29,831 bases of DNA from Spirochaetaceae bacterium. Lineage in GTDB: Bacteria; Spirochaetota; Spirochaetia; DSM-16054; Sediminispirochaetaceae. The stretch lies in contig JAWLDZ010000011.1 of NCBI GenBank assembly GCA_041686355.1, forward strand, positions 28,674 through 58,504, read 5' to 3'. Of the stretch, positions 2,673 through 27,406 are shown in pieces (the stretch's first letter is position 1; each line of letters starts with the position of its first letter). Both the position numbers and the translations under genes were made by a program. The notes under the pieces are model-generated. The model made no database searches. It saw only the letters and a program-made list of their open reading frames with translations, and was not told where the DNA came from.

Positions 2673-2698
2673 CTCAGGTTTCTCCTCTTTTGGCGGCG

Positions 2699-3952: not shown

Positions 3953-3971
3953 GTAAACCTCCCTTACCCGC

Positions 3972-5787: not shown

Positions 5788-5808
5788 ATGTCTCCTCCTT
5801 GCCCGGTT

Positions 5809-6207
5809 TTATTCACGGTCCTGTAGCTCCTGCAGATGATCGATGATGTCCTGGATAGTAAAGCCATAAGATCCGGCTTTTGAGAGGAAGTCCCGGCTGA
5901 TTTGGCTTAGGATTCTCTCCCGTTCGATATCATCAATCTCGATCTGTTTATCTGAGATAAAGGTTCCGGTTCCCTGCTGTGTGTTCACAATCCCTCTGAT
6001 TTCCAGCTGATTGTACGCCTTGGCAACCGTGTTGGGGTTGATCTTAAGGTCCACCGCCAGGCTGCGCACCGTCGGGAGCTGATTGCCCTGCTGCAAGCGG
6101 TTGTCGGCAATTGCCATTTCTATTTGAAGAATGATCTGTTTATAAAAGGGGACACCGCTTTTGGGATCTATTGTGAACTTTAGATCTTCCGTCTTTTTAG
6201 GTGCCAC
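5809..6207 (-). CDS. GntR-family transcriptional regulator, YtrA-like (short C-terminal domain)
   Basis: 132 aa with a winged-HTH GntR signature (LPTVRSLAVDLKINPNTVAKAYNQLEIRGIVNTQQGTGTFIS). The effector domain is short (~60 aa), typical of the YtrA subfamily, which is encoded with ABC transporters. GTG start at 6207 with RBS GGGAGGG 8 nt upstream. Confidence 0.8.
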   Translation of the reverse strand: MAPKKTEDLKFTIDPKSGVPFYKQIILQIEMAIADNRLQQGNQLPTVRSLAVDLKINPNTVAKAYNQLEIRGIVNTQQGTGTFISDKQIEIDDIERERILSQISRDFLSKAGSYGFTIQDIIDHLQELQDRE

Positions 6208-6239
6208 AGTGTGTGCCCTCCCTATTCAGATTTGTTCCG

Positions 6240-6261
6240 TTGTACTATACATATAGTACAA
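6240..6261. promoter_or_regulatory. Putative GntR/YtrA operator: 22-bp near-perfect palindrome
   Basis: The sequence is TTGTACTATA-CA-TATAGTACAA. The arms are perfect 10-bp inverted repeats with a GTAC core, matching the GntR-family consensus (nGT-N-ACn). It lies 33-54 bp upstream of the GntR start codon. Confidence 0.5.
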
Positions 6262-6265
6262 TAAT

Positions 6266-6294
6266 AAAATAGACCCTTAGTTCAAGTTTGTCAA
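6266..6294 (-). promoter_or_regulatory. Sigma70-like promoter of the GntR operon (-35 TTGACA, 17-bp spacer, -10 TATTTT)
   Basis: The minus strand reads TTGACA-aacttgaactaagggtc-TATTTT. The predicted +1 falls inside the palindrome immediately downstream, consistent with autorepression. Confidence 0.4.
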
Positions 6295-6304
6295 CAAGAC
6301 TTTT

Positions 6305-6337
6305 GAAAAAAAGCTGAAAAAAAGCTGAAAAAAAGCT
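6305..6337. repeat. Perfect 3 x 11-bp tandem repeat (GAAAAAAAGCT)x3, phased A7 tracts
   Basis: Read directly from the sequence in the divergent intergenic region between the GntR operon and the lipoprotein gene at 6404. The 11-bp period matches the DNA helical repeat. Confidence 0.9.
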
Positions 6338-6403
6338 GGAATTTTAACGGGACAAATTGAAGCAGACCGATGAAGCAGGTGGTGGTGTTTAATAGGAGGA
6401 GTT

Positions 6404-7951
6404 ATGAAAATAATTACAATCGCAGGTTTTCCTGTACTGAAGACATCCCTATCTTCAGGCCTGATCTTAGTGTTTAGCTTGCTTCCGTTGATAATACTCA
6501 TGTCCCCGCTGTCGGCTTGCACCCAGGCTGCTGCAGGGGATGGGTCGTCTGAAAGCAAAGCCCTTCAGGCGTCAGTTTTGGACGCCTTGGACCAGGAATC
6601 ACCGGAGGAGTGTTATGCCGGCTTGCTGGGATTACATTTGCAGTATCCCCGGGCCCTGTCACCGATGATTTATCTTGCACAGATAGATTTTGCTAGTGGT
6701 AAGACGATTGCAGCAGAGGCGTGGCTTCAGGCGGCCCGAGATTCCAGCCGAGATTCCAGAGTCGAAGGGAGCTCACCGGACTCTGCGTTGGATTATGAAA
6801 CCCAGCTCATGTGGTACCTTTCAGCGCACAGCGCCTATGAGCGGCAGGAGAATCTGAAGTGCCTGTCTTACCTGGAGGAGATGAAAACGGGAGCCGCACC
6901 TGAGATTCCCCCGGATGATCATGTTCGGAGGGCGGAGTTATTCAAGCTTGCCCGGGTGCTGAAGGTAAGGGCTATGATGCACGGCAATGTGAACTCTCAA
7001 GGAGGGGACCCAAAGGCCGTATGTGATCTGCTGAACCTGGTGTGTGAGAGCAGCCCGGAATTGCTCCCGAAGGAGGTTCTGCTGCAGGGAGCTGATTTAT
7101 GTAGTTCCGTGAATCGTCCTGAGACAGCCTCGGTTTTGCTGCAGTACTATTGTCGAAGGCGAGCTTTCGATCCTGATTACTGGGAAATTACGGCGAAGCT
7201 CTGTGAAGACTGCGGTTTAGATACGGAGGCCTCACTTATCCGGCATGAGGCCCAAACTTTTTTACAGCCGGAGCGGGTTGCGTCGGTGAATTTTACCGGG
7301 GCGGATGAAAAGCTTCTGGAGGCGGTACGTTGCTTTCAATCGCAGCAGTGGGAAGGGGCCTTCGAACTGTTGCATACACTCCTCGATGAGGGCAAGCTGC
7401 CGAGGCACCGCTTTGCTGAATATATGTATGCGGTCAGTCGGCTTTACAGCCGCCCCCGGGAAAGAGCTGCAAGGGAGAACTATACAAGGCTGGCGGAACT
7501 GTACGGAGATGAGCAGCTGTATTTTGTACATCTCTATCGAGCCCTTTCTGGAGAGTTTTCCGGGGCGGCTGACTCGAATGGCGAGGCGATGAAACTGGTC
7601 GAGCAGGCTCTGCGCGGCTGTATTGCAGCAGGTCCGCATACGGAGTGGGCCGGTGATGCACGGTCGTATTTGGCGCAGTTGGCGGGCTTGCCCCAGGAAC
7701 TTGAAGCCGAGCCCCTGCTGAAAGAGGAGATGCAGCGGCTGGCCGGATTTGTGTGGGAGGGCGGCTCACCGCAGCTTCTGGATCCGCTGATTGAGACCTT
7801 AGAGTGGCCGGAGAATCGTTATACCCTGGAAGCAGGGCTGATCCTGCGGCAGCTGCGGGTTATACCCGGAGTGGACATGTACATTGCACGGCGAGGTGAG
7901 TTGGCCGGTGAAAGGGGAAAAGAGCGTATCCGGGCTATCCTGCAGTTCTAA
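6404..7951 (+). CDS. Hypothetical lipoprotein, alpha-helical repeat protein
   Basis: 515 aa. Signal peptide with lipobox LSAC (...MSPLSAC-TQAAAG). RBS AGGAGGAG lies 5 nt upstream. No recognisable catalytic motif; helical, TPR-like composition. Confidence 0.7.
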   Translation: MKIITIAGFPVLKTSLSSGLILVFSLLPLIILMSPLSACTQAAAGDGSSESKALQASVLDALDQESPEECYAGLLGLHLQYPRALSPMIYLAQIDFASGKTIAAEAWLQAARDSSRDSRVEGSSPDSALDYETQLMWYLSAHSAYERQENLKCLSYLEEMKTGAAPEIPPDDHVRRAELFKLARVLKVRAMMHGNVNSQGGDPKAVCDLLNLVCESSPELLPKEVLLQGADLCSSVNRPETASVLLQYYCRRRAFDPDYWEITAKLCEDCGLDTEASLIRHEAQTFLQPERVASVNFTGADEKLLEAVRCFQSQQWEGAFELLHTLLDEGKLPRHRFAEYMYAVSRLYSRPRERAARENYTRLAELYGDEQLYFVHLYRALSGEFSGAADSNGEAMKLVEQALRGCIAAGPHTEWAGDARSYLAQLAGLPQELEAEPLLKEEMQRLAGFVWEGGSPQLLDPLIETLEWPENRYTLEAGLILRQLRVIPGVDMYIARRGELAGERGKERIRAILQF

Positions 7952-8736: not shown

Positions 8737-11589
8737 CTATGTCAGCCAGTCTAAGCCTTTGAGAGCGAGTATAGGCCTATGATTTCCAACTAGAATGAGC
8801 GGCGAGAGTGCCGCAGTGCCGAGGAACAGCATTGCCCAGGAAACGGTCGCTCCAGTGGCAATTACAACTGACAAGCCCGCAAGAATTCCAAAGCCCTCAG
8901 AGGATCCCCACAACAGAGGAATTACACCGGCAGCGGTGGTGAAGGTTGATGCGGTTAAAGAGGGGAGTTTTGTGCAGAGTGCCCGGATAAGATCGCACTG
9001 TCTAAGGGGCGCTGAGCTTGTGTCCGACAGCAGGACTAGTCCGTTATTGACGCTTATACCCACATTTACCAGAAAGCCGGTGAGGACTGGAATAGAGAGC
9101 GGAATTTCCAGCCAGTACAAGGGCAGCAGGGGGACTGATAAGGTCGGCGGGATAAAGCTCAATACAAAAAGAGTTCGATATATCTGGTTGTAACAGGAGT
9201 ACAGCAGCAGGGGGACTATAATGGAGGCCAGGCCGATAGCCAGGAGTACCCAATTGCGGTGAGCCCGTTCAACTTGTAAGGACGGTGCAAGTTGTGTACT
9301 GTAACCGGCGGGAAGTTCAAGCCGGTCGAGAACTGCCGAAACTGAATCGACCGCCTGCTGAATCTTCCCCGCAGGGGGCAGCACCGAAAAGCCGGAAAAG
9401 AGGGCCTGGTTGCTGCGTCTTAATACTCCCACTGTATGTACGGTTTCGAGCCGGGAAAGAGAAGACAGGGGGATACTGCGTTCCGTTCCCATCACTTGAA
9501 GGGAGTTATAAAAAGAAGGAAAGTCCCCGGCCCTGTGATTTGCCCGCAGTCTTACATCCTGCTGAGGCATAATCCCCAGTTTGGCTGCCGGGGCGCTGGT
9601 GATAAGTTGGTGCAGCTGTTCGGCAGCCTCCAGCGGACTTATCTGCTGTCGGGCAGCTGCTGCGCTATCAAAAGTGAGTCTGTAAATCGGCGGAGGGCTT
9701 TTGAAATGGTAGTAGAGTTGGTAGTCAGGATGATGTGACTGGATGAGCGCCGCGGTGTGCTTCACCTGTAACCGGAGCTCCCTCTCCTCGCTGCCGTACA
9801 TAAGTACCTGAAAACTCTTCTGGTGGGTGTTTTGGGAGTCCCTAATAAGAGTGGCCTGAGGCGGGAGAGAAATACGGTGAAGCGCCCGCTGAACTGTGCG
9901 GCTGTCACGACTATGCCGGCAGATAACCGAAAACGACGCCTGACCGTTGTGAGAATCGACTGTGAGAGCTTGTACCTGAGGCAGCTGCTGTACCTTTTGA
10001 AAATAGGAACGCAGGCGCTGGTCGATATATTCTGCTCGGGTCCCGGAGGGAAATTCAATCCGCAGATGAATTGTACGCTGCGAGATGTGGGGGAAGTAGT
10101 GAAACTCTAAATTGCCGCTGCAAAATAGAGGCAGTATGCACAGGGAAATATAGATGAACAAACATGGAACAGCTTTTCCGCAGAGGGGCTGCAAGAGGGG
10201 AGGCAGATATCTGAAGCGACCATGGAAATGAAGTTTCATCTGCACGTGTACGGGTGCCGGTCGGCAGAAACGGGGAAATACAACCAGCGTCCACAGGGTT
10301 CCGCAGGTGAGAATTGAAGTCATCACCACCATGAAGCCCTCTAGGTTACTTCGGATCGAGATAGGCAGGAGGAGAATTGGTATGAAGATTGAAATGCTGG
10401 TTATATTGGACAGAAGGACTGGCGCACGCACCGCCGCAACTGCGGCGGCTGCTCCGCGACTGCTATTCTCTTCATAAAAAAGAACCGCCGCATCTACCAA
10501 CAATCCACAGCTCACTGCAATTCCGGCTAAGCCCATAATATCCAGCGAGATAGAGCAGAGCGAGAGGGCTGTCACTCCGGTCAATAATAGGATAGGCAGG
10601 GTACAGAGCATAAGAACTAGTTCCCGGTCAAGATGGCCTACCTGTACGATAAGCACACAGGCTACCCCCAGGAGACCGACGAGGACTGTGACGGCGGTAG
10701 TATAAAGAAGTTTCTCCAGTTCTGTACCACGATTAAAAATTATATGTGCGGAGCGATAATTTTGAGATAGTACCTGTAATTGACGGCACATGCGTATATG
10801 CGGCACATCCCTATCAGCTGTGGCAAGTACGATATGCTGCTGCTGTCCGTTTAATCGATGGATGGAGGAGAAGGAGGGCTCAGGGGATGAACTGTGTCCA
10901 ACTACCCCCTGAAGCTGTGGATCCTCAAGGAGTTCTGTAGGTGGAACCGATACGGTTATTGGGAAATGGGAATCATCAGAACTGAGGGAAAAGGCAAAGC
11001 TGCGGTCTTGGAGCAGAGCAGCGGCTGTATACGACGAAATGTTCCGGCGGGAGACAGAATGTGAGTTGTATTCTAGATTTAGTGTGCGCCCCTTCTCGTC
11101 ACTGGAATGAGAGAGGGAGACACCGGGTAATTTCTCGGCTTCTGCCTGAAAGCCCTGGGATGCGACCTTTTTATCGAGGGGAAAGGCAACCGCAAAGATC
11201 GGCAGCACACTCTCTCCCTGTGCCCGTACTTGAGGATGATGTGCATCCCGGGGAAGCTGATAGATCGCTTTGGCCAGGTTAACCTGGACTTGAGATAGGA
11301 CCTGAGCGGCGGACGCACTGTGTGTAAAGGTAAGATGAATCCGGCTGCGTCCGTTTTTGCTTTCAGCCAGGCTGTTTTGCAGCCCCTCCAATGTGGAGAA
11401 TGCGCCTAACAAGGGCTGCGTAATTTTGCTGTCGATTTCCTTGGCGCCGGCAGGGGGCCAAGGGGTTTCTACCAAAAGGTGAGGTCGGGGGAGGGCAGGG
11501 TAGAGCGCCGGACTCACCCCGGTTCCGCACAGCAGAAAGCCTGCGAGCAGGCCCAGACCGGCAAGGAGACCGATTATATACCTCTTCAT
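8737..11589 (-). CDS. RND-superfamily efflux permease (complete, ~950 aa)
   Basis: Start set at MKRYIIGLLAGL (ATG 11587-11589), which forms an ATGA overlap with the upstream stop. The N-terminal pattern LPxxxxPxxxxPxLxVxTxWPGAxAKEIDSKITQPLExxxxxLxGL matches the AcrB-type porter-domain start. TM2-6, a second periplasmic domain (LPAGYSTQL...) and TM8-12 (NxG.vlv motif region) are all present. Confidence 0.75.
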   Translation of the reverse strand: MKRYIIGLLAGLGLLAGFLLCGTGVSPALYPALPRPHLLVETPWPPAGAKEIDSKITQPLLGAFSTLEGLQNSLAESKNGRSRIHLTFTHSASAAQVLSQVQVNLAKAIYQLPRDAHHPQVRAQGESVLPIFAVAFPLDKKVASQGFQAEAEKLPGVSLSHSSDEKGRTLNLEYNSHSVSRRNISSYTAAALLQDRSFAFSLSSDDSHFPITVSVPPTELLEDPQLQGVVGHSSSPEPSFSSIHRLNGQQQHIVLATADRDVPHIRMCRQLQVLSQNYRSAHIIFNRGTELEKLLYTTAVTVLVGLLGVACVLIVQVGHLDRELVLMLCTLPILLLTGVTALSLCSISLDIMGLAGIAVSCGLLVDAAVLFYEENSSRGAAAAVAAVRAPVLLSNITSISIFIPILLLPISIRSNLEGFMVVMTSILTCGTLWTLVVFPRFCRPAPVHVQMKLHFHGRFRYLPPLLQPLCGKAVPCLFIYISLCILPLFCSGNLEFHYFPHISQRTIHLRIEFPSGTRAEYIDQRLRSYFQKVQQLPQVQALTVDSHNGQASFSVICRHSRDSRTVQRALHRISLPPQATLIRDSQNTHQKSFQVLMYGSEERELRLQVKHTAALIQSHHPDYQLYYHFKSPPPIYRLTFDSAAAARQQISPLEAAEQLHQLITSAPAAKLGIMPQQDVRLRANHRAGDFPSFYNSLQVMGTERSIPLSSLSRLETVHTVGVLRRSNQALFSGFSVLPPAGKIQQAVDSVSAVLDRLELPAGYSTQLAPSLQVERAHRNWVLLAIGLASIIVPLLLYSCYNQIYRTLFVLSFIPPTLSVPLLPLYWLEIPLSIPVLTGFLVNVGISVNNGLVLLSDTSSAPLRQCDLIRALCTKLPSLTASTFTTAAGVIPLLWGSSEGFGILAGLSVVIATGATVSWAMLFLGTAALSPLILVGNHRPILALKGLDWLT

Positions 11590-13826
11590 TCCGCCTCGCT
11601 TTCGGCTATTTGAGAAATGTCGCACAGTTCTCCCAAGGGGACACTGCTGTTGCCACTACCCCCGCGGATGCTATCGATGAAAATCGGAAGAGCAGCCAGC
11701 TCGTTGACTGTTGAACTGCGGCCGTAATAAAGATGTACCGGAATCTGGGCCGAGACACTCTGTGTATCCGGTAGAGAGCCAATTTTATTTCCGGCAACCG
11801 ACAGCTGCAGATGAGAATAAAACTCATGATGACTTGCCGTGGCAAAGGGGCTATCCTTCTGCTTGATTTCCAGGTTGAAGCGCCGGGGCTGAATCGATTG
11901 CCCGCTGTCGGAGTCCTTCCTTCGAGCACCGGCCGGGTTGCCTAAACTGATTAGATTGCCCGGGTTGCTCAGATCGTGCAAAGCGCTTAGACCGCGCAGG
12001 GCGGTAAGGGGTGAAATAAGACAGTCTATACTGATGTGCTGTGGATGCACTCGTAGTTCCCAGTACTCAGAGGCGGTGCTGCAGCGCTCGATGTGAGAGT
12101 ATTGAGGAACTCCGGCGGAAAACAGGGCAGGCGGAAAACGGCTGCGAAAGTGGGAGCTGAGTGCAAGGCATGCGTTCTGAGGGGGAAGCGAGGTCTTTAG
12201 GAAGTAAGAGCGGGGACTGGGGAGAATCAACAGCGTCCCTGCGAGCAGGCCGATCAGGATGAAGAGGGGGATGAGTCGACCGAGGGGCACTCGGGGGTGG
12301 AGTTTGGACGAAAGAGAGGGGTGCTTAAGGGGTATCCGCCTCATTCCCGACAGGAGTATCCCGCAAAAAAAGAACCAGCATACCCCCTGCAGTACCTGTG
12401 CATAATTTAGAGTACCCCTTGCGAACAATGCTCCCGAAGGACAGCTTCTCAGGAGAGACGAATGGAAGGTCAGGCTGTTGCGGATTCCCTGCTGAACAGC
12501 TCCGTCAACGATGTCATGCAGGGTGATTCCCAGGCCAGTTATCAAGGCTGCGGAGGCGAGGGTAATTACACACAGGTCAACTATCTGCCCCAACCAGGGG
12601 CGGGCGGCTGCAGAAAGCAGTACAGTTATTCCCGGTACTGCTATGCAGATTCCAATGCAGCGGGAAGGGGTCAGGGGAATTTGAAACAGGGTGTGTAAAC
12701 CGAGCACCAGGGCCCAGGACAGTAGGTATTGCCAGATAGTACCATTGTCGTGTGGAGTCGGAGGAGAGGAGAGGCAGGCGGAGAGGAGCAGGCCCGCAGA
12801 AAAAAAGGCGCATAAAAGTACCACCGCCCCTATCACGGAGAAATAGGTGCCCCCGTTGAAAGTGATATCTTGAACCACATCAGTTCTCTGTACTGCCTGC
12901 CGGATATATCGGAAGAGAATGAGCTGCTGGAATAGCTGCAAGTGGTGACTCCCCTGAATAGAAATTTCTGCTACCCGCCATTCGCCTTCGCCGGTGGGGG
13001 TAGCCCCTCCGGCAAAGGAAAAGTCAGAGGTGGCGATAAAGTGAGTCGGCCTCAGCTCTTGCAGCTCCACCGAAGCCAGTTCCTGCAGGCGAATTATGTG
13101 GGTGCCCGTGCCTGAACTCCGGGGAATCGGCAACTCCAACTGCTTGAGATCGGTAATGTCTGCAATACTGCTTTGCATTTCCACCCCTATCTCGCGCTGT
13201 TCCTCCTGCTGGACACCGGAATAGAAATGAAACAGGGAGTGTTGGAGGTACTGCTGTATATAGAGGGGGGATATCCTCAGCCGGGATAGCTTCTCCGGAT
13301 CAAGACGTATGACTATTCTGCGAGCCCCGAACCCGCTGACCAGGGCCCTTTGAATGTTTGGATTCCTCTGCAGCTGCTCCTGTAGCTGAGCAAGTTCAAG
13401 GTTCCGGATAGTTTCGGTTTGGGGTTTTAGGGAACAGCAGAGCTTCAAGAACGGCGGTTCAGAAGGCAAGGGCGTTATAATCGGCCTGGAGGCTTGATAG
13501 GGCAGCCGATTTTGTATGCGGCTCATACTCTGTTGAACCCGGCTGATACCTGCTAGAACCGGAGTACCCCTGGGAAATCTCACCCTCAACAGCAGTTCGG
13601 CCTGGGCAGATTCAGTCTCTACATGAATCTGTCCGGACAAGGTGCGGAGTTCCTCCTCGACGAGGCCTTGCATCGATCTGCGTACTTGTTCTTTGCTCAA
13701 ACCCTCCGCCGGTATCCGAACCATGATCTGTGGAGTATCCGGTACCGGCCGGCCGGGTATAACTATTCGCGGCAGGCAGAAGAGCATACAGATGAGCAGG
13801 GCTGTCTCTATCGGCCGCGGATTCAT
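11586..13826 (-). CDS. RND-like protein, N-terminal half paralog (TM1, porter domain, TM2-6; lacks TM7-12)
   Basis: True start is MNPRPIETALLICMLF (ATG 13824-13826, an ATGA overlap with the upstream stop). It sits 11 aa before TM1, as in AcrB (MPNFFIDRPIF...). The ORF-track extension to 13976 has no basis. The porter-domain start (VPDTPQIMVRIPAEGLSKEQVRRSMQGLVEEELRTLSGQ) resembles AcrB. Hydrophobic helices end at ~aa 540, and the last ~200 aa are non-hydrophobic and low-complexity. Confidence 0.55.
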   Translation of the reverse strand: MNPRPIETALLICMLFCLPRIVIPGRPVPDTPQIMVRIPAEGLSKEQVRRSMQGLVEEELRTLSGQIHVETESAQAELLLRVRFPRGTPVLAGISRVQQSMSRIQNRLPYQASRPIITPLPSEPPFLKLCCSLKPQTETIRNLELAQLQEQLQRNPNIQRALVSGFGARRIVIRLDPEKLSRLRISPLYIQQYLQHSLFHFYSGVQQEEQREIGVEMQSSIADITDLKQLELPIPRSSGTGTHIIRLQELASVELQELRPTHFIATSDFSFAGGATPTGEGEWRVAEISIQGSHHLQLFQQLILFRYIRQAVQRTDVVQDITFNGGTYFSVIGAVVLLCAFFSAGLLLSACLSSPPTPHDNGTIWQYLLSWALVLGLHTLFQIPLTPSRCIGICIAVPGITVLLSAAARPWLGQIVDLCVITLASAALITGLGITLHDIVDGAVQQGIRNSLTFHSSLLRSCPSGALFARGTLNYAQVLQGVCWFFFCGILLSGMRRIPLKHPSLSSKLHPRVPLGRLIPLFILIGLLAGTLLILPSPRSYFLKTSLPPQNACLALSSHFRSRFPPALFSAGVPQYSHIERCSTASEYWELRVHPQHISIDCLISPLTALRGLSALHDLSNPGNLISLGNPAGARRKDSDSGQSIQPRRFNLEIKQKDSPFATASHHEFYSHLQLSVAGNKIGSLPDTQSVSAQIPVHLYYGRSSTVNELAALPIFIDSIRGGSGNSSVPLGELCDISQIAESEAE

Positions 13827-15265
13827 AGGTTGTAACTTTTCCTTACTGTACCGGCAAGCGAGTTTCCAAGGGAATCCTTCAGATTCTGATCGAGCTGCAG
13901 GTAGAGCAGGCCGGCAGCGGGAAAGCGGTTGACAGCAAAGGAGAGCCGGAATACCGAATCCGGCTGCAAGCTGCATAGCTCTTCACAGGCGGCATTAGTT
14001 ACCTGCTTCAGCGAGTGAAGCTGAATACCGGCGGCAGTATTTGTGGCGTATAGACCGAGTGCCTGCATCAACTGAGGGGTGGAGATTTCCGCTGCGTCGG
14101 AGTGGCTGAAGGCAAGCTCCATCGCCGCCTGTGATGAACTTTCACACAAAAGCAGCTCGTTTAAACGGATACGGCGGAACTCAGATTCCGCTGCGGTATC
14201 ATTGCAGAAGGAGACCCCCGCTAGTTCAACCCTTTGGAGTCCCTCTCCGTCCCATTGCAGATAATAATCATGCCCGCCGAGGTGCAAACGGTACAGCACC
14301 TCGGGGTCCAGCCGGCTAGGCGGCAGCAGACTTACCTGTTTGTAATTCTCACTCCAGTTGAAGTCGAAGCCCGGATTTGGCTGGAGTTGAAGGGTCTCCT
14401 CCCGCGGCTCTGATAGTGCGGGCTCGGAAAGGATAATCGAAAATTCCTGGCGGTGTCCGATATGGTAGGTTTTACCTGGTATCACTTCAGGGTATTCCGT
14501 TCCCTGATCTGAACTAAGGCGGAACTCATCCACCGAGATCTCCTGCCGGCTCCGGACCTCATACTGCCGGCGTACCGTCTCGGATATGTTTCGTCCTTCT
14601 GTATCGGAACAGCGAGTTGTAATTTGCAGCTGGTAGCGAAGCTCCGGGCTGAGCCCGCAGGACGGGATAAATCGAAGCCTGGAATTATCCTCCTCCCAGA
14701 TGAAGCTGCCCTGTATCTGTGGGGAGGTCTCAAAGGCACTGTAAAAACTTGCGGGGCTTACAGGTTTGTTGAAGCTGATAACAAACTCTGTGGCCGGATC
14801 AATAATCAAGTTATCAGGATCCGGGGTTATACTACTAATTTGAAGAGGGCGGGGATCGTCGCCGCATGAGAAGTTTCTCACAAAGGGCTCGGACATGGGA
14901 ACACCATCTTCCGAACGGGCGGTAAAGGCTATACGGAGGGTGCAGCTTTCCGATGAGGGAAGTGTGCGGGGGGTGAAGGAGAGATGGGCGGAGTCATGCC
15001 ATTCGAAACTGCCGTCGATCGGGTTTAAGCCCTGGGAAAAACTCCAGGCCGATTCTACGGAGGATCTGTCCATATCACAGGAGAACTGCACTGAAATAGG
15101 CTCTGCCGACTGCAGGATAGGGTATGGATTGAGGGCTTCAACTGTGGGAACCTTGTGCAAAAAACTCAAGTAAGGGCTGCAGCCGATCAAGCATCCGCAC
15201 ACCCAGCACTTCACAAGGTACTTCAAGCAGCCGCAAGGGGGCGGGTTGAATTTTACCTTTTTCAT
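13823..15265 (-). CDS. Lipoprotein with bacterial Ig-like (Big_5/SbsA-like) domain, paralog A
   Basis: 480 aa with lipobox LIGC. Segment PISVQFSCDMDRSSVESAWSF...IDGSFEWHDSAHLSFTPRTL fits the Big_5 pattern (I.V.Fse.md..Sv.....l.......i.G...w......l.F.P...L). ATGA overlap with the upstream gene. Confidence 0.6.
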   Translation of the reverse strand: MKKVKFNPPPCGCLKYLVKCWVCGCLIGCSPYLSFLHKVPTVEALNPYPILQSAEPISVQFSCDMDRSSVESAWSFSQGLNPIDGSFEWHDSAHLSFTPRTLPSSESCTLRIAFTARSEDGVPMSEPFVRNFSCGDDPRPLQISSITPDPDNLIIDPATEFVISFNKPVSPASFYSAFETSPQIQGSFIWEEDNSRLRFIPSCGLSPELRYQLQITTRCSDTEGRNISETVRRQYEVRSRQEISVDEFRLSSDQGTEYPEVIPGKTYHIGHRQEFSIILSEPALSEPREETLQLQPNPGFDFNWSENYKQVSLLPPSRLDPEVLYRLHLGGHDYYLQWDGEGLQRVELAGVSFCNDTAAESEFRRIRLNELLLCESSSQAAMELAFSHSDAAEISTPQLMQALGLYATNTAAGIQLHSLKQVTNAACEELCSLQPDSVFRLSFAVNRFPAAGLLYLQLDQNLKDSLGNSLAGTVRKSYNL

Positions 15266-16695
15266 GGGCTTACCCTCACTGTCAGAGTTTCCCCGGCGGC
15301 GGGTTCATCGGAAGGGGAGACTGCCAGGGAGAGCGAGTAGTAGCAATCCCGCTGATTCGATTGAACTCCAAAGCCCTGCATCTGAACCAGCATCCGATCG
15401 GCATCGGGCCACATAAAACTTACTATGGCGGGGGAGGGTAAGTCAGGGGGGAAGAGAGTTGAGACGGCGGTCTGTCCCTGCAGCAGCCCCCGGCTCTCCT
15501 CATCCGATACCTCCTCAGAGTATTCCACTAGAAAGCTGTAGTTTCCTTCCTCTCCATCCGGTGTAATATCAATCGCCTCCTCTGCCTCATCCCCTGACTC
15601 ATCCGGATCAATGGAAAATCCGTCTATCTCCTCTCCAGTTACCCGCAGTACCGAGGGCAGTGCTGCTGCGGTGTGAAACTGCCGGGGAGAGGTAAAGATG
15701 ATGTTGTGAAGGATGCTCTGTGAAGAATATGGATTTATACTGCAGCGGTAGGTAGTAGCTTGGGAAAAGCTCTCATCCGGAATAAAAACGGAGTTTAGAG
15801 AATCCTTCCAATAAAGAGAGCCCCCGCAGAAGGGGTCAAGGGTAAGGGCCGACTCGAACTCATCCTGATCAACCGGATAGTTCAACGAAAATTGAATACT
15901 CTCCTGCGGGCACAGTTCCGACAGCTCACCTTCGACCCTAGGAAAATCCTCCTCCCAATTCATCTCCACCGGCGAAATATGGAGTTCGATCGAATCGGGG
16001 CTCTCAAAGTCACAGACATAATAAGCGGAGGGGTAGGGCAGAGAAGAAAACTCCAAGCTGTAGATTGTATCCTTTGACCAGCCCTTCTCCGGGACCAGGC
16101 TTAGGGTGGTGGAGCTGCTGTTCCATACCAGGCTGTACGAAGACAGAGGCGAGAGTTGCAGATCCTGTGTTACCGCGGCAGCTTCGACTGCTGCCGGAAA
16201 AGTAAGCTGTATTGCTGTCTGTGCTTCTATTTCACTGCCGCTCGGGGGCTGATACACTACCTCCGAATCTGAGCCTCCCGGCGGGTGTAGGTAATAAAAG
16301 GGGATGAGTGTCTGTAGTGTACGGCGGGACCCTCGGGACATGTGCACGGTACCGCGCAGTTCAAGGCTGTAGCGGCCCCCTTTTTCCAGAGACTTCGACG
16401 GGTAGAACTCGAGACGGTTGTCCTGCCATTGGAAAGTTCCGGGAATCTGACCTGTGAGGCTTCTCAAGCTGAACACGGCTTCAGCTGAGCTGCGATCTAT
16501 ACCGGAGGCAAATTCTACTGTGATAGTATCGTCGGCGCTAAGAATTGAGTTCCGCTTCTTTGGACAGGTGGAAATAATCGGGTCGGGCTGCAGTTGATCG
16601 AAAATGAAACTGCATTGAAGCAGAGTAAGACTGATGACGAGGGTGAAGGTACATTTGCAGCATCTGTACAGCCGCAGATTAATACGATAATCCAT
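15262..16695 (-). CDS. Lipoprotein with bacterial Ig-like (Big_5/SbsA-like) domain, paralog B
   Basis: 477 aa. Signal peptide ends in LLQC. Segment TITVEFASGIDRSSAEAVFSL...IPGTFQWQDNRLEFYPSKSL aligns with paralog A. RBS AAGGAGGAG lies 6 nt upstream. Acidic C-terminal tract (DPDESGDEAEEAIDITPDGEEG). Confidence 0.6.
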   Translation of the reverse strand: MDYRINLRLYRCCKCTFTLVISLTLLQCSFIFDQLQPDPIISTCPKKRNSILSADDTITVEFASGIDRSSAEAVFSLRSLTGQIPGTFQWQDNRLEFYPSKSLEKGGRYSLELRGTVHMSRGSRRTLQTLIPFYYLHPPGGSDSEVVYQPPSGSEIEAQTAIQLTFPAAVEAAAVTQDLQLSPLSSYSLVWNSSSTTLSLVPEKGWSKDTIYSLEFSSLPYPSAYYVCDFESPDSIELHISPVEMNWEEDFPRVEGELSELCPQESIQFSLNYPVDQDEFESALTLDPFCGGSLYWKDSLNSVFIPDESFSQATTYRCSINPYSSQSILHNIIFTSPRQFHTAAALPSVLRVTGEEIDGFSIDPDESGDEAEEAIDITPDGEEGNYSFLVEYSEEVSDEESRGLLQGQTAVSTLFPPDLPSPAIVSFMWPDADRMLVQMQGFGVQSNQRDCYYSLSLAVSPSDEPAAGETLTVRVSP

Positions 16696-18166
16696 ATCTC
16701 TCCTCCTTGGATTGCGGTTTTGAGATCACCTCTATCTGCATGCCCTCGCAGAGCAGGTCTGGGGGCGAAACAATAATTTCATCTTCCCCGGAGAGTCCTC
16801 CTTCTATATATACTTTCTCAGGGCATGTTTTTACGATCTGAACCGCTTGTCGAAAGGCATGCTGTCGCCGGACTGTAAACACCGCTGCTTTTCCGGCTTC
16901 GAGAATGCTTTGTTCCTGCGGCCCGATGAGTGCCTGCTTTGGGAGGGTATACACCCGACGGGGCTCTTCAGTCCGGATTGTGATGTGAGCTTCCATGCCG
17001 GGGATAATATCCGCGGGGGGTGAGTTTAAACTGCAGAGCACCTCGAAGCTGCTGCTGTGCGGATGTATAACAGGCCCTACTTGCCGTACCCGGCCGCGTA
17101 TCGAATGGTCGTGGCGGGGCAGTTTAATTTGAGCACTTTGATCCCGCCGGATTTCCGGACGGTGGGATGCGGCGACCTGGGCCTGAACCTGCAGTGAGTC
17201 GGTTTCAACCAGGGTGGCCAGGGAGTCTCCCACATTGAGGTAGGATCCGGGAAGCGCGTGCAGCTCCGAAAGATAACCGGAGTCTGGTGAGCGTATCGAG
17301 CAGGCCTGTTGCCTGTCCTCGTTGTGATGAATCCTGTCTTTGAGCTCGGCAATTCTACTTTCGGCAGCTTTAATATGGATGTCCCCCTGACTGGCCACAG
17401 ACTGAAGATACGCAGCCGCCCGATCTACAGGCTGCGGGGATGGTTCCGACAGTTCAGCTAATTCGTCGGTCAGGTCCTTATCCCTGAGTCCGATCAGGGC
17501 TTCATTTAATTGATTCTCCAGATTAGAGAGCGAGGCCTCCTGCTGTTCTAAATCTAAGCGGTATTTCTGCAGCGCCGCGGTGGATATCCCCCCGGCTTTC
17601 TCCAGTGATTGGGCTTGTTGGTATTCCAGTTCGCTGTGAGCGCAAAGCGTGCGGGCTTGTTGCAGCTGCCGTTGTAATCGTTCAATTTTCAGCAAATGAC
17701 GCTCGGCCTGCCGCTGCATCTCAGCCCGATTCATTTGAGCCTGCTGCAGGTCGATCCGCGCTCTGGTGAGCTGTTCTACTAAAATATTGTGCTGAAGTTC
17801 AAGCTGCGCGGTACTGATGCGGATTAATACTTGATCCTTTTCTACCAGCTGGCCGCGCTCACTCCTCACTTCCGTCACTAAACCTTCTACAAGACTGCTG
17901 ATGACATGCTTCTCAAGACTCACGACTGTCCCCGGCACTGATATTCCGGCAGCATATTCCACTGCCTCGGGGGAACAGGTGTGAACGGGCAAAAGAGTCC
18001 CGGCGGGAGTATCGCCGGGATTTTCGGTAGTTTGGCGTTTTTCTCTGCCTGCCTTTGAGCAGGTCGGAAAGAGAGCCGAGAGCAGGACAAGTGAGAACGT
18101 GAGAAAGATGAGTAGATGTATTGATCCACATGTTGACCTCGTAGTCCGGTTACTGCTGTAGGGCAT
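16679..18166 (-). CDS. Periplasmic adaptor / membrane fusion protein (HlyD/EmrA-like, long coiled-coil hairpin)
   Basis: Start preferred at MPYSSNR (ATG 18164-18166) because GGAGG lies 5 nt upstream. N-terminal TM anchor, then a biotinyl/lipoyl-like beta segment (GTVVSL...VEGLVTEV...GQLVEKDQVLIRI), a ~200-aa coiled coil, and a beta-barrel/MP domain (SLATLVETDSLQVQAQV). Confidence 0.75.
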   Translation of the reverse strand: MPYSSNRTTRSTCGSIHLLIFLTFSLVLLSALFPTCSKAGREKRQTTENPGDTPAGTLLPVHTCSPEAVEYAAGISVPGTVVSLEKHVISSLVEGLVTEVRSERGQLVEKDQVLIRISTAQLELQHNILVEQLTRARIDLQQAQMNRAEMQRQAERHLLKIERLQRQLQQARTLCAHSELEYQQAQSLEKAGGISTAALQKYRLDLEQQEASLSNLENQLNEALIGLRDKDLTDELAELSEPSPQPVDRAAAYLQSVASQGDIHIKAAESRIAELKDRIHHNEDRQQACSIRSPDSGYLSELHALPGSYLNVGDSLATLVETDSLQVQAQVAASHRPEIRRDQSAQIKLPRHDHSIRGRVRQVGPVIHPHSSSFEVLCSLNSPPADIIPGMEAHITIRTEEPRRVYTLPKQALIGPQEQSILEAGKAAVFTVRRQHAFRQAVQIVKTCPEKVYIEGGLSGEDEIIVSPPDLLCEGMQIEVISKPQSKEERYGLSY

Positions 18167-19586
18167 GGGAACCTCCATAGGACTCAGGGCTCAGACTTTT
18201 CAGCACCCCCGGGATATAGCGGGATAAACCACAGGTTTGTAAAAGAGAACACTCCATTTCCAGGCAGCTGCGGCTGATTCGATACAGTTCGAGCAGGCTG
18301 TCCGTATATGTCTGGTGTGTTTCTACCAGGTCGCGAAGGTCTTCATCTCCAAAATCAAACTGATCAGCCTTGATGCTGCAGCTTTCGCGGTGCAGTTGGG
18401 TCTGCGCAAGAAGGTTCTTCTGTACTTCTTTCAGATGGGATAATTCGCCGTACAGTCTGAGGGCTCGGGTACTCGCGGAAGAACGGGCCACTTGGAGCTT
18501 CTGCCGGGCCTGCTGCAGCTGCAGGCGAAGCATGCTTCGCGTCTCCGACGTTTTTTGTGAAAAATCAACAGCCCCATGGGCAGATGAACTGCCGGCATAG
18601 GTATAGGAGGAGTAGTTGGAAGTATTTCCGGCGGCGGCTTCCATTTTTCCGGCTCCGCCGCTCAGCTGCAGACCGAAACTGAGGGACGGAGAAGCGGGGG
18701 GGAACTCAGAGCTCATAAAATCTATACGGGCGAAAACTAAGGTCTGCGGGCAGAACTGCCGGAGTGCAAGGGAGTACCGGTCGGCGGTAGTGCGGCATCG
18801 AATCTCCTGTTGGATAACCTCGGTATTGTTCTTCTGAGCCGCCTCTTTATAAAAGGCGGGCTGTGAGGGCAGCTGAGAGCCGATGCTGCCGGTATAAAAT
18901 CGAGGTAAACTCCCCTTCAGCTGGGAAGTCGGCGGGCTCTCTGAACCCAGAGACAACTCAAGCCGGGAGTACAAATTCTGTAAACGAAGCTCCTCGGCGC
19001 CCACTTCCAACTGTTTGGTTTCATACTCTAGACCAAGCCGGCGATAGCGCTGTGCGCTGATAGTGGCCGAAGTATGCTGTTGATCGGCACTGTGCAGATG
19101 CCGGGAGTATAGCTCCAGTAATTGCTCCATATGCTTTAGCGCTGTCTTGGAATAGAGAATATTTAGACAGAGTTCGGTAATTTGCGAGCTAATTGCCTCT
19201 CTCCGCAGTCGAATTTCTAGCTTAAGCTGCTCCAGCTTACGGGCCTTCTCCTGTTCGGAGAACCAGGAGCTGCCTTGATCGGTGAGCTCTACCTCAATCC
19301 CGACACCCAGCTTATGAGTAAGTCTGTAAGGCTCCTCCAATCCGTAGCTTTCACTGCCCTCATATTCTACAAACACACGTGGAAGACGGGCCCTCAGCTG
19401 GGGGGATAAGCTGCTGCGGGCTTGGTGGAGCCTCTTCTCTATCTGCTGCAGCTGCAGATCGGACTCTTGAGCCTGCTGAATAGCCTCTGCGACAGAGATT
19501 GCTTCGGCCGCCGCTCCGGTGCTTCCCTGCCAAAACATACTCAGCAGGAGAAGGAAAGACTCAAGGCACAGGAGGGGCTGCTTCAT
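18150..19586 (-). CDS. Outer-membrane efflux protein, TolC/OMF family
   Basis: 478 aa. Signal peptide, then the OMF signature start ISVAEAIQQAQESDLQLQQIEKRLHQARSSL. Two-fold internal repeat of long helical segments. Confidence 0.75.
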   Translation of the reverse strand: MKQPLLCLESFLLLLSMFWQGSTGAAAEAISVAEAIQQAQESDLQLQQIEKRLHQARSSLSPQLRARLPRVFVEYEGSESYGLEEPYRLTHKLGVGIEVELTDQGSSWFSEQEKARKLEQLKLEIRLRREAISSQITELCLNILYSKTALKHMEQLLELYSRHLHSADQQHTSATISAQRYRRLGLEYETKQLEVGAEELRLQNLYSRLELSLGSESPPTSQLKGSLPRFYTGSIGSQLPSQPAFYKEAAQKNNTEVIQQEIRCRTTADRYSLALRQFCPQTLVFARIDFMSSEFPPASPSLSFGLQLSGGAGKMEAAAGNTSNYSSYTYAGSSSAHGAVDFSQKTSETRSMLRLQLQQARQKLQVARSSASTRALRLYGELSHLKEVQKNLLAQTQLHRESCSIKADQFDFGDEDLRDLVETHQTYTDSLLELYRISRSCLEMECSLLQTCGLSRYIPGVLKSLSPESYGGSHALQQ

Positions 19587-20121
19587 CGTTCTTTTCCAGG
19601 TGCAGCAGACGCAGGGCGATTTGTCTGAATTCTCCTGCTTTGCTGTGAAGGCCTATGTGGTGATACATCTCCGCCCGGGTCAAATAAATTCCCGCAATGC
19701 CGGTTACACAACCGGCACCCCATTCAAGCAATGCTACTGCCTCGGTGTAGTTTCCCTGTTCAAAGCGGCACTTTCCTAGGAGCAGCAGCAGTTCCGGATG
19801 CTCCGGAATTATCTGGAGATATGGTGAGAGCAGCTCGTACGCCGGCTCGGGATGATTTTCCATTAGAAGGGCTCGCGCTTTCCATTTATCCATACGAAAA
19901 CCATAGGGAAATTGGGTCTCACTTTTCTCCCATATGTTCAGGGCTTCTGCATAACGGCCGGCAAAAAATTCCTTTTTCCCGGACTCCAACAGCTCATCGA
20001 ATATACCCGCTTGCTGCTGAGGACTACCAAGGGGCACAGAGTCGGATGAGTAGCTTGGGCTGCAGCCCAGCAGCATCCATATGCAACTGCCTGCCATCAG
20101 TTTTTGAATCCGGCATCCCAT
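19561..20121 (-). CDS. TPR-repeat lipoprotein (first gene of efflux operon)
   Basis: Start set at the ATG at 20119-20121, with RBS AAAGGAGGT 7 nt upstream. The TTG at 20124 used by the ORF track is too close to the RBS. Lipobox LLGC. TPR-like helices (GRYAEALNIWEKS...LLLLGKCRFEQGNYTEAVALLE). Confidence 0.6.
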   Translation of the reverse strand: MGCRIQKLMAGSCIWMLLGCSPSYSSDSVPLGSPQQQAGIFDELLESGKKEFFAGRYAEALNIWEKSETQFPYGFRMDKWKARALLMENHPEPAYELLSPYLQIIPEHPELLLLLGKCRFEQGNYTEAVALLEWGAGCVTGIAGIYLTRAEMYHHIGLHSKAGEFRQIALRLLHLEKNDEAAPPVP

Positions 20122-20236: not shown

Positions 20237-23200
20237 ATGAAAAGAGAAATTTGTATTGCGGCGGTGCTCTGCTGCAGCCTTGGCGGTATCGGAGGCTGGT
20301 CCGATTCCATGTATCATCAGGACCCAATTCAATCCTACATCACGAGTGTGCAGGAAAAAAGTCGAATTTACAGCAGACAGCTTCGCAGAGCATCCCAAGC
20401 CGAAGGGGAAGCTTTGCTGCGGGAGTATAAGCACGAGCTTCGGCAGCGCGCGGAAGAACTGGTATCGGAATGGCAGGGGGAGCGGCAGACAGAAGCGCCT
20501 GCCAATGTAGATCCGGCGGAGGTTGAAGAAGAGATTGAAAAAGCGGTTGAAAAAGTCCAACAGTCCATTGGAAGGAGGCGAGCAGAGTATCTCCGTCAGT
20601 TTGAGCGTCTGACCGAACTCTATGCCGATCGCTATCTGGAGCCGCAGCTAGCTGAAAGGCGTCAGAGCCAAAGCAGTACGGCTGGGGGAACCGGCCCGCT
20701 GCAGCGGATAAAAGAGGAAATGCAGTTGTATGCGGGGGGTAAATCGAACTCATTCTCGGCTCTGGATCAATGGGAGAAGGCTGAGTATCAGCTGCTTGAT
20801 CAAAGGATGGAGTGGGAGCGGAATATCGAAAACCGCTACGCCGACGAGTTGAAACAAATTAAGGCTGAGTATCAGCGCATTGACGACCAGACCAGTTGCC
20901 GGTTGGAAGCACTGCAGCAGCACTACGATCAGGGTCTGCAGCTTTGGCAGCGGCGGGAGCAGGAATTTGATTCCGCGTGGAGCGTGGAGCTTGAGCAGTT
21001 GAAGCGTGATGTGGACGAAAGAAATGCTGAGGCTGGAGAGCTGTATGCTCACTTGGCCGGTGCCTATCACAATTCCCAGGCGCTGATTGCCGAGGCGGAG
21101 GCCCACTTGTATGCGGGGGAAGATGTGTCGTCTTGGCAAAAGGTGCGCGCTGAGGAACTGGAGGCGTGCACAGACATTGAGGCCGCCTACATGGATTTAA
21201 TGCGTCCGGGTATGCAGGTTCCCGCGGCACTCCTAGAGCAGGAGATGAGCGGGGTGAAGATACAACTTGAAGCAGTCGGAGGACGAGTGGATATGCTGCA
21301 GTCTTTAGTGGACTTTATCAACCTGCCGGAGGAGGAACGAGATGTGGTGCAGCTTCAGCAGCTAAAGAGCGGACAAGCCGCAGAGTACCTCCGGCTGTTG
21401 AAAAGCGAAGGGGTGTTAAGTGAAGCAGCTGCCGAAGCGTATGCCGGCTACATTCTCACCGGAATAAAGGTGTCAATTGGAAAAGGGGATGCAGACGGGA
21501 TCTTATCCGAGCAGCAGAATGAACTAAAGAAGAAACTTCAGGCTGGGCGCGAGGAGTATGCACAGCTCCAGGCTATATATGAACAGTTCAGCACAATGTC
21601 TTCTGCCGCCCGCGATGAGGCTGGAGGCTCTGCAGAGTTGTTGCAGCAAAGCTTAGACTTGAAGTCTCAGGCAGAACTCCATCAGATAACGGGACAGCTC
21701 GAACAGGCCGAGGCATTCCTTTCCGCTCGCCGACAGCTGTATCGACAAGAAATATCAGAGCTCAGCTCCCAGTTCCAAGAGGGTCTTATGAGTTTGTTTC
21801 CCCAGATGCAGATTCAGTGTGAACCTATCCACCTAGGCAGCTCCCTTAACGGCGAAAGTTGGGACAGCCTTCAGGTCATGCCCGACGCAGAGGAGTATGC
21901 CCAGCAGCCGGAACTGCTGCGGCGGGATGCTCTGATTTGGGCAAATGAAATGGAGCGGGAGCGGGAATCGCAGCGGCTGGACTCTTTTCTAAAGGAGTGT
22001 GCCTTGGCTCTGTACCATGAGGATAATGAGCTTCTTGATCCGGGCTATGCTTCGAATAATCAAATCTACAAGAAACTGCAGAGTAAACTGCACAGCTCCC
22101 CTCAACACTACTTGGCAGCTCCTGCCCGAGGGGCTTACAACTCTATTGCAAAGGATGCGCGCAAGCTGAGACTGTATCGTTTCTACGCCATGGCTATCCA
22201 GGCACAGCCCGATCAGACAGCTTCGCCACTAAGCCAGGCGGCGGTGGAAGATCTGGGAGAGCTGCTATTTAAGGAGATCGTGGAGCATGCCCGGCGGAAG
22301 TCCACCGCTCTTAATCGGAAGCGCAAGGATTTATTAAAACAGGCTAAAGTTTATGCGGGATTAGCAGCTGCATGTTATGCAACCCTGAATGTTCCCCGGG
22401 GAGCTGCATTTACTGCCGCTGCGGCCGGGTATGCAGCTACTGCTGCGGATGTGAAAGCGAAAAGAGACGACATGAACGCCCTGAAAAAGAGTGTATCGGA
22501 ACAAGCCATGGATGGCTCTGCAGAGCGGCGGCAGGTTAAACAGGAGCTGGCCGGCCTATCCGTCAACCAGTCAGAACTCCACCGTATAAAGGGGCGGATT
22601 GCCTATCTTGAACAGGAGACCCACAGCGATGAGTATTGGAGGCAGCAAATAAAAAATGGGAAGGGAGAATTTAACTTTACCCGGTTTTATGAGGATGACG
22701 CTTTAAAAGCCGAGCCTTTGTATCAATTTATGAACGCAGCTGCAGTCGGGGACAGCTCCGTCTCTGCATCCGCATCTATCTCTGAGGAGCCTAAAGGCAC
22801 GCTCACCGAATATATACAGAAGCTTATCGAAGCTGCTTCCGAGAGGAACGAAGCGCTGGCGGAGCTTCGCCATGGGCTGAATGCACGGCTGCTGCCCGAA
22901 CTTGCCGAATATCCTGCAATAAGTTCCCGAGGAGCGGTCTATCCGCGACTGGCAGAGTCGGAGCTGCAGCTGCAGAGTTTATACGGCCATGGGCAGGCGG
23001 CGTTTAACCTTTCTGGTGGACTGGATGAGGCGGAGTTTGCATCAATGCTTTCGCTGGTGCAGCTGGGGGGAGTAACACGTGTGATGAAGGCCCGCTCTCG
23101 CAGGGCGCAGCTTAAACAGCAGTTACTTGATCAGAAAGGTTTGTGGGAACAGCACCTGAGCCTGACAACTGCATCTCAACAAAGTCATAGAGAAGCACAG

Positions 23201-27396: not shown

Positions 27397-27406
27397 AAAA
27401 ACTCCT

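Follow-up and report, generated by a model that had tools for sequence, protein, structure and literature searches.

A tightly coupled spirochaetal operon predicted to encode an RND export pump with two Ig-like lipoproteins and a truncated RND paralogue

We consider here a row of genes within a stretch of 29,831 nucleotides (the window) from a Spirochaetaceae bacterium (assembly GCA_041686355.1, contig JAWLDZ010000011.1, positions 28,674 to 58,504), which appears to encode an export pump of the resistance-nodulation-division (RND) superfamily. Eight consecutive open reading frames (ORFs) occupy the minus strand between positions 7970 and 20124 of the window. In the 5' to 3' order of the operon these encode a tetratricopeptide repeat (TPR) lipoprotein, an outer membrane factor (OMF), a periplasmic adaptor, two Ig-like lipoproteins which we refer to as BigA and BigB, a shortened RND protein (RND1-short), a full-length RND permease (RND2) and a short-chain dehydrogenase/reductase (SDR):

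19561..20121, minus strand: TPR lipoprotein (predicted), 186 aa from the ATG at 20121, first gene of the operon; Pfam TPR_19 1.8e-9, ANAPC3 2.3e-8
18150..19586, minus strand: divergent TolC-family OMF, 478 aa, with a signal peptide and no lipobox; Pfam OEP 4.3e-8
16679..18166, minus strand: RND-type periplasmic adaptor, predicted to be lipidated, 495 aa (alternative ATG at 18178); TIGR01730 RND_mfp 5.9e-40
15262..16695, minus strand: BigA, predicted lipoprotein with four Ig-like (Big_5-type) beta-sandwich domains, 477 aa; Pfam Big_5 4.4e-14
13823..15265, minus strand: BigB, paralogous Ig-like lipoprotein (predicted), 480 aa; Pfam Big_5 2.1e-15 over two stretches
11586..13826, minus strand: RND1-short, RND-derived protein, 746 aa; ACR_tran 4.4e-18, 64.9 bits
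8737..11589, minus strand: RND2, RND permease with 12 predicted transmembrane (TM) segments, 950 aa; ACR_tran 8.5e-51, 173.2 bits
7970..8728, minus strand: SDR oxidoreductase, 252 aa; adh_short_C2 3.5e-35

The genes are closely packed. Three junctions are ATGA start/stop overlaps on the minus strand (15262-15265, 13823-13826 and 11586-11589) and the ATG of the SDR gene follows the RND2 stop after a gap of 8 nt, just as a preliminary description of this DNA had set out, and the eight named parts lie where it had placed them and agree with Pfam and NCBIfam profiles. The remaining overlaps had been given as 17-26 nt, which holds for the TPR/OMF junction (26 nt) and the adaptor/BigA junction (17 nt); between the OMF and adaptor genes the overlap is 17 nt from ATG 18166, which is the start chosen in the public gene call (495 aa), but reaches 29 nt from ATG 18178. 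A strong Shine-Dalgarno sequence precedes the TPR gene (AAAGGAGG) and BigA (AAGGAGGAG) only, and the other operon genes are therefore probably translationally coupled. Consensus scans for promoters and terminators inside the gene row returned nothing above shuffle expectation. The gene calls are identical in a public record of the same contig from a Spirochaetia metagenome-assembled genome (MAG; GCA_046496925.1, JAWOGJ010000218.1), and the genes recur in two Logan assemblies made independently of each other, which together rule out an assembly artefact as the origin of the short RND1. Judged from these features, this is a tightly coupled eight-gene operon for a predicted envelope-spanning RND export pump.

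Close relatives share the row, including a divergent giant gene, the SDR gene, a convergent gene for a 515-aa protein and a cluster of GntR-SPFH-ABC-FtsX-FtsX-LolA-like genes, to which we return below. When patterns specific to the RND2 of this clade were compared with 185,579 species-representative genomes they occurred in four MAGs only, all labelled uncultured Sediminispirochaeta. Beyond the MAGs of close relatives, seven further contexts could be read (L017, L018, L019, L020, L021 from Sediminispirochaeta smaragdinae, L022 from a gut Spirochaetia MAG, and L023), six of which, the distant loci, were reached through a HMMER search with BigA and the other, L017, a locus of intermediate distance, through an earlier search with BigB. 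All seven follow the order (TPR)-(small ORF)-OMF-adaptor-BigA-BigB-RND-RND, with the caveats that the TPR gene of L019, perhaps together with the OMF gene, follows RND2 instead of preceding the adaptor, and that the L017 contig ends inside the first RND gene, which places RND2 outside the view. At the gene level, two tandem paralogous RND genes lie downstream of one adaptor gene in all loci, and tblastn identifies the first Big gene in each case as the BigA orthologue, the second as the BigB orthologue and the last RND gene as the RND2 orthologue. The TPR gene leads the module in L004, L009, L013, L016, L017, L018, L020, L021, L022 and L023, and lies nearby in L019.

The proteins of the distant loci (S. 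smaragdinae, Ca. Thalassospirochaeta and gut Spirochaetia) are 20-30% identical to those of the window. Since the Big genes hold the same position in related loci at approximately 20-30% identity, they are likely to be ancient, fixed members of the operon. The preliminary description had rightly placed two Big_5 lipoprotein genes between the adaptor and RND genes and a TPR lipoprotein gene at the head of the operon, but it had also allowed that the operon might not be conserved, or that the lipoprotein genes might be a recent insertion; they occupy the same position in every related locus examined. On this comparison of loci, the module is a widespread, spirochaete-specific family, and the form in the window is a derived one with a truncated RND1. 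The combination had been called unusual, and it does differ from AcrAB-TolC, but it belongs to a widespread spirochaetal family and is not a one-off. Searches of the full-text literature turned up no account of this module, nor any of an RND operon that includes Ig-like lipoproteins. A small ORF of around 155 aa is also seen between the TPR and OMF genes in four of the seven contexts (L018 6669-7160, L021 6803-7264, L023 2961-3431 and L019 21024-21452); it has no Pfam or NCBIfam match and is absent from the window's lineage.

RND2 is readily assigned at the level of the superfamily. Its score against Pfam ACR_tran (gathering cut-off 28 bits) is high, it aligns over its full length with MtrD (4mt1) and CusA, and its hydropathy profile has a 1+5+1+5 arrangement of TM segments, with peaks at residues 5-23, 299-438 (five), 473-491 and 781-934. 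By profile and topology it is an RND superfamily permease of a very divergent subfamily; a non-RND identity for the two large proteins, for which the preliminary description had left room, is not what the profiles return for either. The divergence is apparent from a search of 5.8 billion proteins, in which the relatives of RND2 drop from 46% straight to 21% identity outside the clade. When RND2 is aligned with MtrD (4mt1), its proton-relay positions correspond to those of AcrB as D366 to D407, Ala367 to D408, Asn848 to K940 and Lys874 to R971; D366 is invariant in both the close and the broad family, the Asn pair is also conserved, and the relay pattern as a whole is kept throughout the family. 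The single TM4 Asp sits in a VDAAV context which resembles that of CusA. RND2 falls below every curated subfamily cut-off tested, including those of the HAE1 models (NF033617, 123.8 against 1250 bits; NF000282, 67.9 against 1250; TIGR00915, 43.1 against 940) and of the CusA/CzcA model (88 bits against 701, E 3.7e-25). Membership of the HAE1 multidrug subfamily is rejected on these curated scores, which are far too low, and on a relay that differs from D407/D408/K940/R971. No Met triad is conserved in the close or broad family alignments of RND2. In L022 the RND2 orthologue (15556-18270) carries an inserted region with a match to Pfam LPD3 and aligns poorly around TM4 and TM10, which suggests that RND2 has been remodelled further in the lineage of that gut MAG.

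RND1-short is less easily placed. Its ACR_tran match is limited to residues 27-257, BLASTP against RND2 found nothing significant (E 0.25) and it was therefore only with profiles that homology to RND2 could be established: hhalign aligns residues 10-232 alone with the RND2 profile, at a probability of 94%. Hydropathy shows TM1, a loop of approximately 300 residues, a central hydrophobic cluster, TM7 and a periplasmic C-terminal tail of approximately 210 aa; with TM8-12 and the TM4 Asp missing, this is not a 12-TM permease. The distant loci indicate where it came from. In L018, L019, L021, L022 and L023 the gene at this position encodes a full-length RND1 of 944-1031 aa, with VDN in TM4 and an Asn at the position in TM10 equivalent to K940 (INT/VNS). 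Aligned with the full RND1 of L018, L019, L021 and L022, the short form is collinear through TM1 and the first loop, is degenerate in the central region, where the GIGMIVDN motif of TM4 is lost, then realigns after TM7 and ends inside the second periplasmic loop before TM8. On these alignments, RND1-short thus derives by truncation and degeneration from a full-length RND gene, the first of a tandem pair. The term 'half-RND' under which it was first described is borne out insofar as the protein is RND-derived by profile, but an independent half-size transporter is ruled out by the full-length RND1 at the same position in distant relatives. The short form also occurs in L020 (718 aa), whose RND2 is just 28% identical to that of the window, which argues that the truncation is old and stably inherited. 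As a separate observation, it is the more canonical paralogue, RND1, and not the divergent RND2 that has degenerated in the window's lineage: in S. smaragdinae (L021, 12945-18720) RND1 scores 453 bits and RND2 235 bits against NF033617 (cut-off 1250), and Asn takes the place of AcrB K940 in each paralogue.

The adaptor had been described as a HlyD/EmrA-type membrane fusion protein with a long hairpin, of which the long, EmrA-like helical insert stands, whereas the type does not. The protein passes TIGR01730 RND_mfp (137.2 bits against a cut-off of 94.9), stays below the cut-offs for EmrA (TIGR00998, 74.6 against 390.8 bits) and HlyD (TIGR01843, 45.2 against 208.65 bits), and in a PDB search its C-terminal half (residues 254-487) aligns with ZneB, TriA-TriB, MexJ and 4kks, the 'Membrane fusion protein' BesA. 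On these grounds the adaptor is of the RND type, and its likeness to EmrA is confined, as far as the sequence can tell, to the long helical insert. This insert, of approximately 165 residues and predicted to be helical, lies between the lipoyl half-motifs; its length is constant, and the lipobox Cys36 is invariant, among nine aligned orthologues, and Pfam HH_EMRA matches the adaptor orthologues in L019 and L021. The OMF matches Pfam OEP over the first repeat (33.6 bits against a cut-off of 22, residues 33-214), and a profile of ten orthologues matches the solved OMFs CmeC (9.4e-9), TolC (2e-5) and OprM (1e-4) across both repeats (positions 23-291 and 340-448). It is a TolC-family channel by profile, an assignment to the family and not to a trimeric beta-barrel. 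The TPR protein, BigA, BigB and the adaptor are all predicted to be lipoproteins from their lipoboxes, which are MLLGC in the TPR protein (kept in its orthologues), LLQC in BigA, LIGC in BigB and FPTC in the adaptor.

BigA and BigB are paralogues (23% identity, E 4e-11) that score 53.5 and 57.8 bits, respectively, against Big_5 (cut-off 23.6), and NCBIfam holds no model that matches either of them. An AlphaFold2 model of BigA, with a mean predicted local distance difference test (pLDDT) of 87.8, has four beta-sandwich domains behind a lipoprotein signal peptide, and its Foldseek neighbours are the S-layer protein SbsC at the top, followed by SbsB, Sap and the Ig domains of LdtMt2; on this model the fold of BigA is generic and has no catalytic domain. 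Among 35 homologues Cys28, the lipobox Cys, is invariant, the remaining invariant positions hold P, W, G, F and Y, and no conserved His/Met/Cys ligand set was found beyond that Cys. When 1.84 billion representatives were searched exhaustively with BigA in HMMER, 1076 matches were found at E < 1e-3, of which 267 were below 1e-10; a word-index homologue search had returned 10 Big clusters and so badly underestimates the family. Among the best 150 matches, 115 are 430-530 aa in length, and of these full-length matches 112 have an N-terminal Cys and 112 are nearer to BigA than to BigB. At least 112 full-length clusters at 50% identity exist for BigA. The named sources are Spirochaetia/Spirochaetota, save for one MAG labelled Planctomycetes, and include S. 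smaragdinae DSM 11293 (Spirs_1761), which is cultured, S. bajacaliforniensis and Ca. Thalassospirochaeta sargassi.

Among known systems, the closest functional analogues are MdtABC and MuxABC-OpmB. MdtABC-TolC and MuxABC-OpmB likewise have an adaptor gene followed by two tandem paralogous RND genes, both of which are full length in L018, L019, L021, L022 and L023, and MdtB obligatorily assembles with MdtC into a B2C heterotrimer (PMC7015380). RND1 and RND2 are not orthologues of MdtB and MdtC, whose equivalog models give 27-260 bits where 1584-1774 would be required, and the RND duplication is therefore probably independent. The spirochaetal module differs further in the two Ig-like lipoprotein genes between the adaptor and RND1, in having a TPR lipoprotein and the channel in the operon and, in the window, in an RND1 truncated to 746 aa. 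The preliminary description had set the layout apart from both AcrAB-TolC and Mdt, and whilst the first distinction stands, the second needs correcting, as the ancestral layout of one membrane fusion protein and two RNDs resembles Mdt/Mux.

With AcrAB-TolC and MexAB-OprM the module shares the three-part architecture, the 12 TM segments and two large periplasmic loops of the permease, a TolC-family channel and an adaptor with lipoyl, beta-barrel and membrane-proximal domains. It departs from them in an RND2 that is approximately 21% identical to the nearest canonical RNDs and has a D/A/N/K relay in place of D407/D408/K940/R971, and from AcrAB-TolC also in four extra proteins and in the adaptor insert of approximately 165 residues; the hairpin of AcrA comprises approximately 75 residues. 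BesA, the adaptor of the Borrelia burgdorferi system BesABC, lacks a hairpin, whereas the helical insert of the window's adaptor is very long. BesABC and the TP0790/TP0965/TP0966-0969 system of Treponema pallidum are tripartite RND systems from spirochaetes that, like the one considered here, have a divergent TolC-like channel (PMC2279261, PMC8407342), but they have one RND gene and no Ig-like lipoproteins, and in T. pallidum a single adaptor is shared between pumps. CusCFBA provides a precedent for a fourth component, since an extra periplasmic protein, CusF, is encoded inside its RND operon; BigA and BigB are by contrast four-domain lipoproteins of 480 aa, BigA lacks a conserved His, Met and Cys ligand set and RND2 lacks a Met triad. 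The adaptors of EmrAB-TolC and HlyBD-TolC share the long helical region and an interrupted returning arm, but here the partner transporter is an RND rather than an MFS or ABC protein, and an RND-type membrane-proximal domain is present.

Taking these comparisons together, we hold with moderate confidence that the module represents a spirochaete-specific family of RND export machines in which RND2 is the transporter, RND1-short a remnant and BigA and BigB accessory subunits. Its core would consist of the TPR lipoprotein, the TolC-family channel, the lipidated adaptor with its long EmrA-like insert, BigA, BigB, RND1 and RND2. RND2 would act as the inner-membrane transporter and would feed its substrate along a long adaptor tube into the channel of the outer membrane, and its single conserved TM4 Asp suggests coupling to the proton motive force. 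RND1 would ancestrally have been a second full transporter, probably assembled with RND2 in the way that MdtB is with MdtC; in the window's lineage RND1-short may serve as a membrane-anchored periplasmic subunit which has no part in energy transduction but is still selected for. BigA and BigB would be made in fixed proportion with the pump through the ATGA coupling and most likely have an accessory or scaffolding role in the periplasm rather than that of an enzyme or metal chaperone, and the TPR lipoprotein may assist assembly.

Several considerations weigh against this explanation. RND2 is without the canonical D408 and K940, and proton coupling is for that reason not assured. Between close relatives RND1-short is the fastest-evolving gene, at 30-37% identity where RND2 is at 46-51%, its TM region gains and loses helices from species to species, and an AlphaFold2 model made from a 6-sequence alignment reaches a pLDDT of 36, which leaves its fold and function uncertain. 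Hetero-oligomerisation of RND1 with RND2, and association of BigA and BigB with the pump, are suggested by gene linkage only, and what we say of function beyond the identity of the components is drawn from sequence and synteny. The conserved neighbours, that is, the giant protein and the TPR-like 515-aa protein, also hint at a role beyond generic efflux.

It could be argued that RND1-short is a decaying, functionless remnant of RND1, and that RND2 alone, with the adaptor and channel, makes up the working pump. RND1-short is the least conserved gene of the operon, its orthologues vary from 623 to 862 aa as the central TM cluster gains and loses helices (they are lost in L009, L015 and L016), and just 220 or so residues align to the RND profile now that TM8-12 and the TM4 Asp are gone. 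However, the ORF is intact, with a start that overlaps the upstream stop, in every member of the clade, across which RND2 is 28-50% identical, and the first loop and the C-terminal motifs (EYW, PV.L.YG and LPIF) are conserved among the orthologues. Nei-Gojobori estimates of the ratio of non-synonymous to synonymous substitution rates (dN/dS) among the three closest genomes are 0.29-0.38 for the whole gene and clearly below 1 in each of its three regions (0.25-0.33 in the first periplasmic loop, 0.38-0.41 in the TM region and 0.22-0.30 in the C-terminal region), set beside 0.20 for RND2, 0.20-0.26 for BigA and BigB, 0.23 for the adaptor and channel and 0.09 for the SDR, the most conserved gene of the row. 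RND1-short is under purifying selection; it is the least constrained gene of the operon, yet it does not evolve neutrally. We consider a functionless remnant unlikely, and prefer to see in RND1-short a subunit that has been retained.

The surroundings of the operon bear on a second alternative. Two conserved neighbours lie on the opposite strand:

20237..26581, plus strand: giant protein, 2114 aa, divergent from the operon, with a good ribosome-binding site; frequently conserved neighbour
6404..7951, plus strand: 515-aa protein, convergent neighbour; weak TPR_19 match at 0.023

The giant protein has a signal/lipobox-like N-terminus (MKREICIAAVLCCSLGG), an N-terminal region of approximately 1000 aa rich in coiled coil, a Gly/Ala-rich hydrophobic stretch at around residues 1290-1420 and an HEAHRD motif, and it has no sequence match in Pfam or the PDB. 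Giant genes homologous to it (2000-3000 aa) stand at this site in L004, L009, L013, L016, L017, L019 and L020, and L021 also has a giant gene there, although without detected sequence similarity. The giant gene is possibly linked to the module. The 515-aa protein has no Pfam match at 1e-3; homologues are encoded on the opposite strand, immediately behind RND2/SDR, in L004, L009, L013, L016, L019, L020 and L021, and it may belong to an extended module.

If these neighbours are taken as part of the system, the module might be a dedicated machine for envelope biogenesis or export, with a client such as the giant lipoprotein-like protein, surface lipoproteins or a lipid, and with the TPR and Ig-like lipoproteins as chaperones or receptors. 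A divergently placed giant gene in eight of the eleven distinct loci with a readable upstream side (homology being detected in seven), the TPR-like 515-aa homologue downstream, three accessory lipoproteins, which is far beyond the needs of a drug pump, and the non-HAE1 relay of both RND paralogues (a single Asp, with Asn at the K940 position), which also score far below the curated subfamily cut-offs, would all fit such a role. Against it, no giant gene adjoins the module in L018, L022 or L023, the sequences name no client, and both adaptor and channel belong to the ordinary type found in efflux pumps; moreover, no RND pump is known to transport folded proteins of 2000 aa. A dedicated envelope-client machine therefore strikes us as improbable, and an export machine of RND type with accessory lipoproteins remains our preferred explanation.

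We give still less credence to the view that an otherwise ordinary two-RND efflux pump merely shares its transcript with two lipoproteins of the periplasm or surface, BigA and BigB, that are unrelated to it. Neither catalytic nor ligand motifs are present in them, the nearest folds are generic strings of Ig domains such as those of S-layer proteins and the N-terminal domains of LdtMt2, and Big_5 domains recur among large proteins of many unrelated kinds (of the best 150 BigA matches, 23 exceed 600 aa). In every locus, nevertheless, the two genes stand between those for the adaptor and RND1, frequently with 4-nt overlaps, and the distinction between A and B orthologues is kept at 20-30% identity; genes that persist within an operon over so deep a divergence typically encode subunits of one complex, which would favour BigA and BigB as parts of the pump. 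We set aside a heavy-metal pump or metal chaperones, as neither BigA nor RND2 has a conserved His/Met/Cys ligand set and the CusA/CzcA model falls far below its cut-off.

The SDR, which the preliminary description had counted within the operon, is probably co-transcribed with it given the short gap that follows RND2, but it is linked to the module in the window's sublineage and L020 only and is not part of the core. It is absent in L018, L019, L021, L022 and L023, and as a core component it is rejected on this absence from distant modules. Its dN/dS is like that of a housekeeping gene, and it would be a co-transcribed passenger of the window's sublineage. In NCBIfam it comes closest to PRK09134 and pteridine reductase, without reaching the cut-off of either.

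Further out, the GntR-SPFH-ABC-FtsX-FtsX-LolA-like cluster lies just downstream of the operon (622-5787, minus strand, with the GntR gene at approximately 5800-6400); its LolA-like member is PF17131, TP_0789-like, and the cluster is 77-88% conserved in relatives, far above the pump. In T. pallidum the equivalents TP0786-TP0789 adjoin TP0790, its only RND gene, and there may be a deeper linkage between LolA-like/FtsX genes and RND pumps in spirochaetes. Beyond the giant ORF, on the minus strand at 26887-29305, lie genes for a peroxiredoxin (Redoxin/AhpC-TSA), a dihydrolipoamide dehydrogenase-like protein and a 2-oxoacid dehydrogenase acyltransferase, and a peroxiredoxin gene also flanks the giant gene in L020.

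A bolder proposal, which we put forward tentatively, is that these modules form an RND class of the spirochaetes' own. The hetero-oligomeric two-RND pump would then count BigA and BigB, as Ig rods of approximately 16 nm, and the TPR lipoprotein among its integral, stoichiometric subunits, which would perhaps brace it or extend it across an unusually wide, flagella-containing periplasm, and one lineage would have turned an RND paralogue into a non-energised periplasmic scaffold. The full module is present in S. smaragdinae DSM 11293 (Spirs_1761 region), a cultured organism with a sequenced genome, which makes these ideas directly testable. If they are correct, RND1-short would show an RND protomer surviving in nature without its transmembrane engine, and the truncation of RND1 would amount to a natural experiment on what a protomer requires for assembly as against energy transduction. 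The accepted parts list for RND systems consists of a transporter, an adaptor and a channel with occasional small extras, and a phylum-specific version with three added lipoproteins and a paired RND would extend that list and may offer a handle on how RND machines are built in the atypical envelope of spirochaetes.

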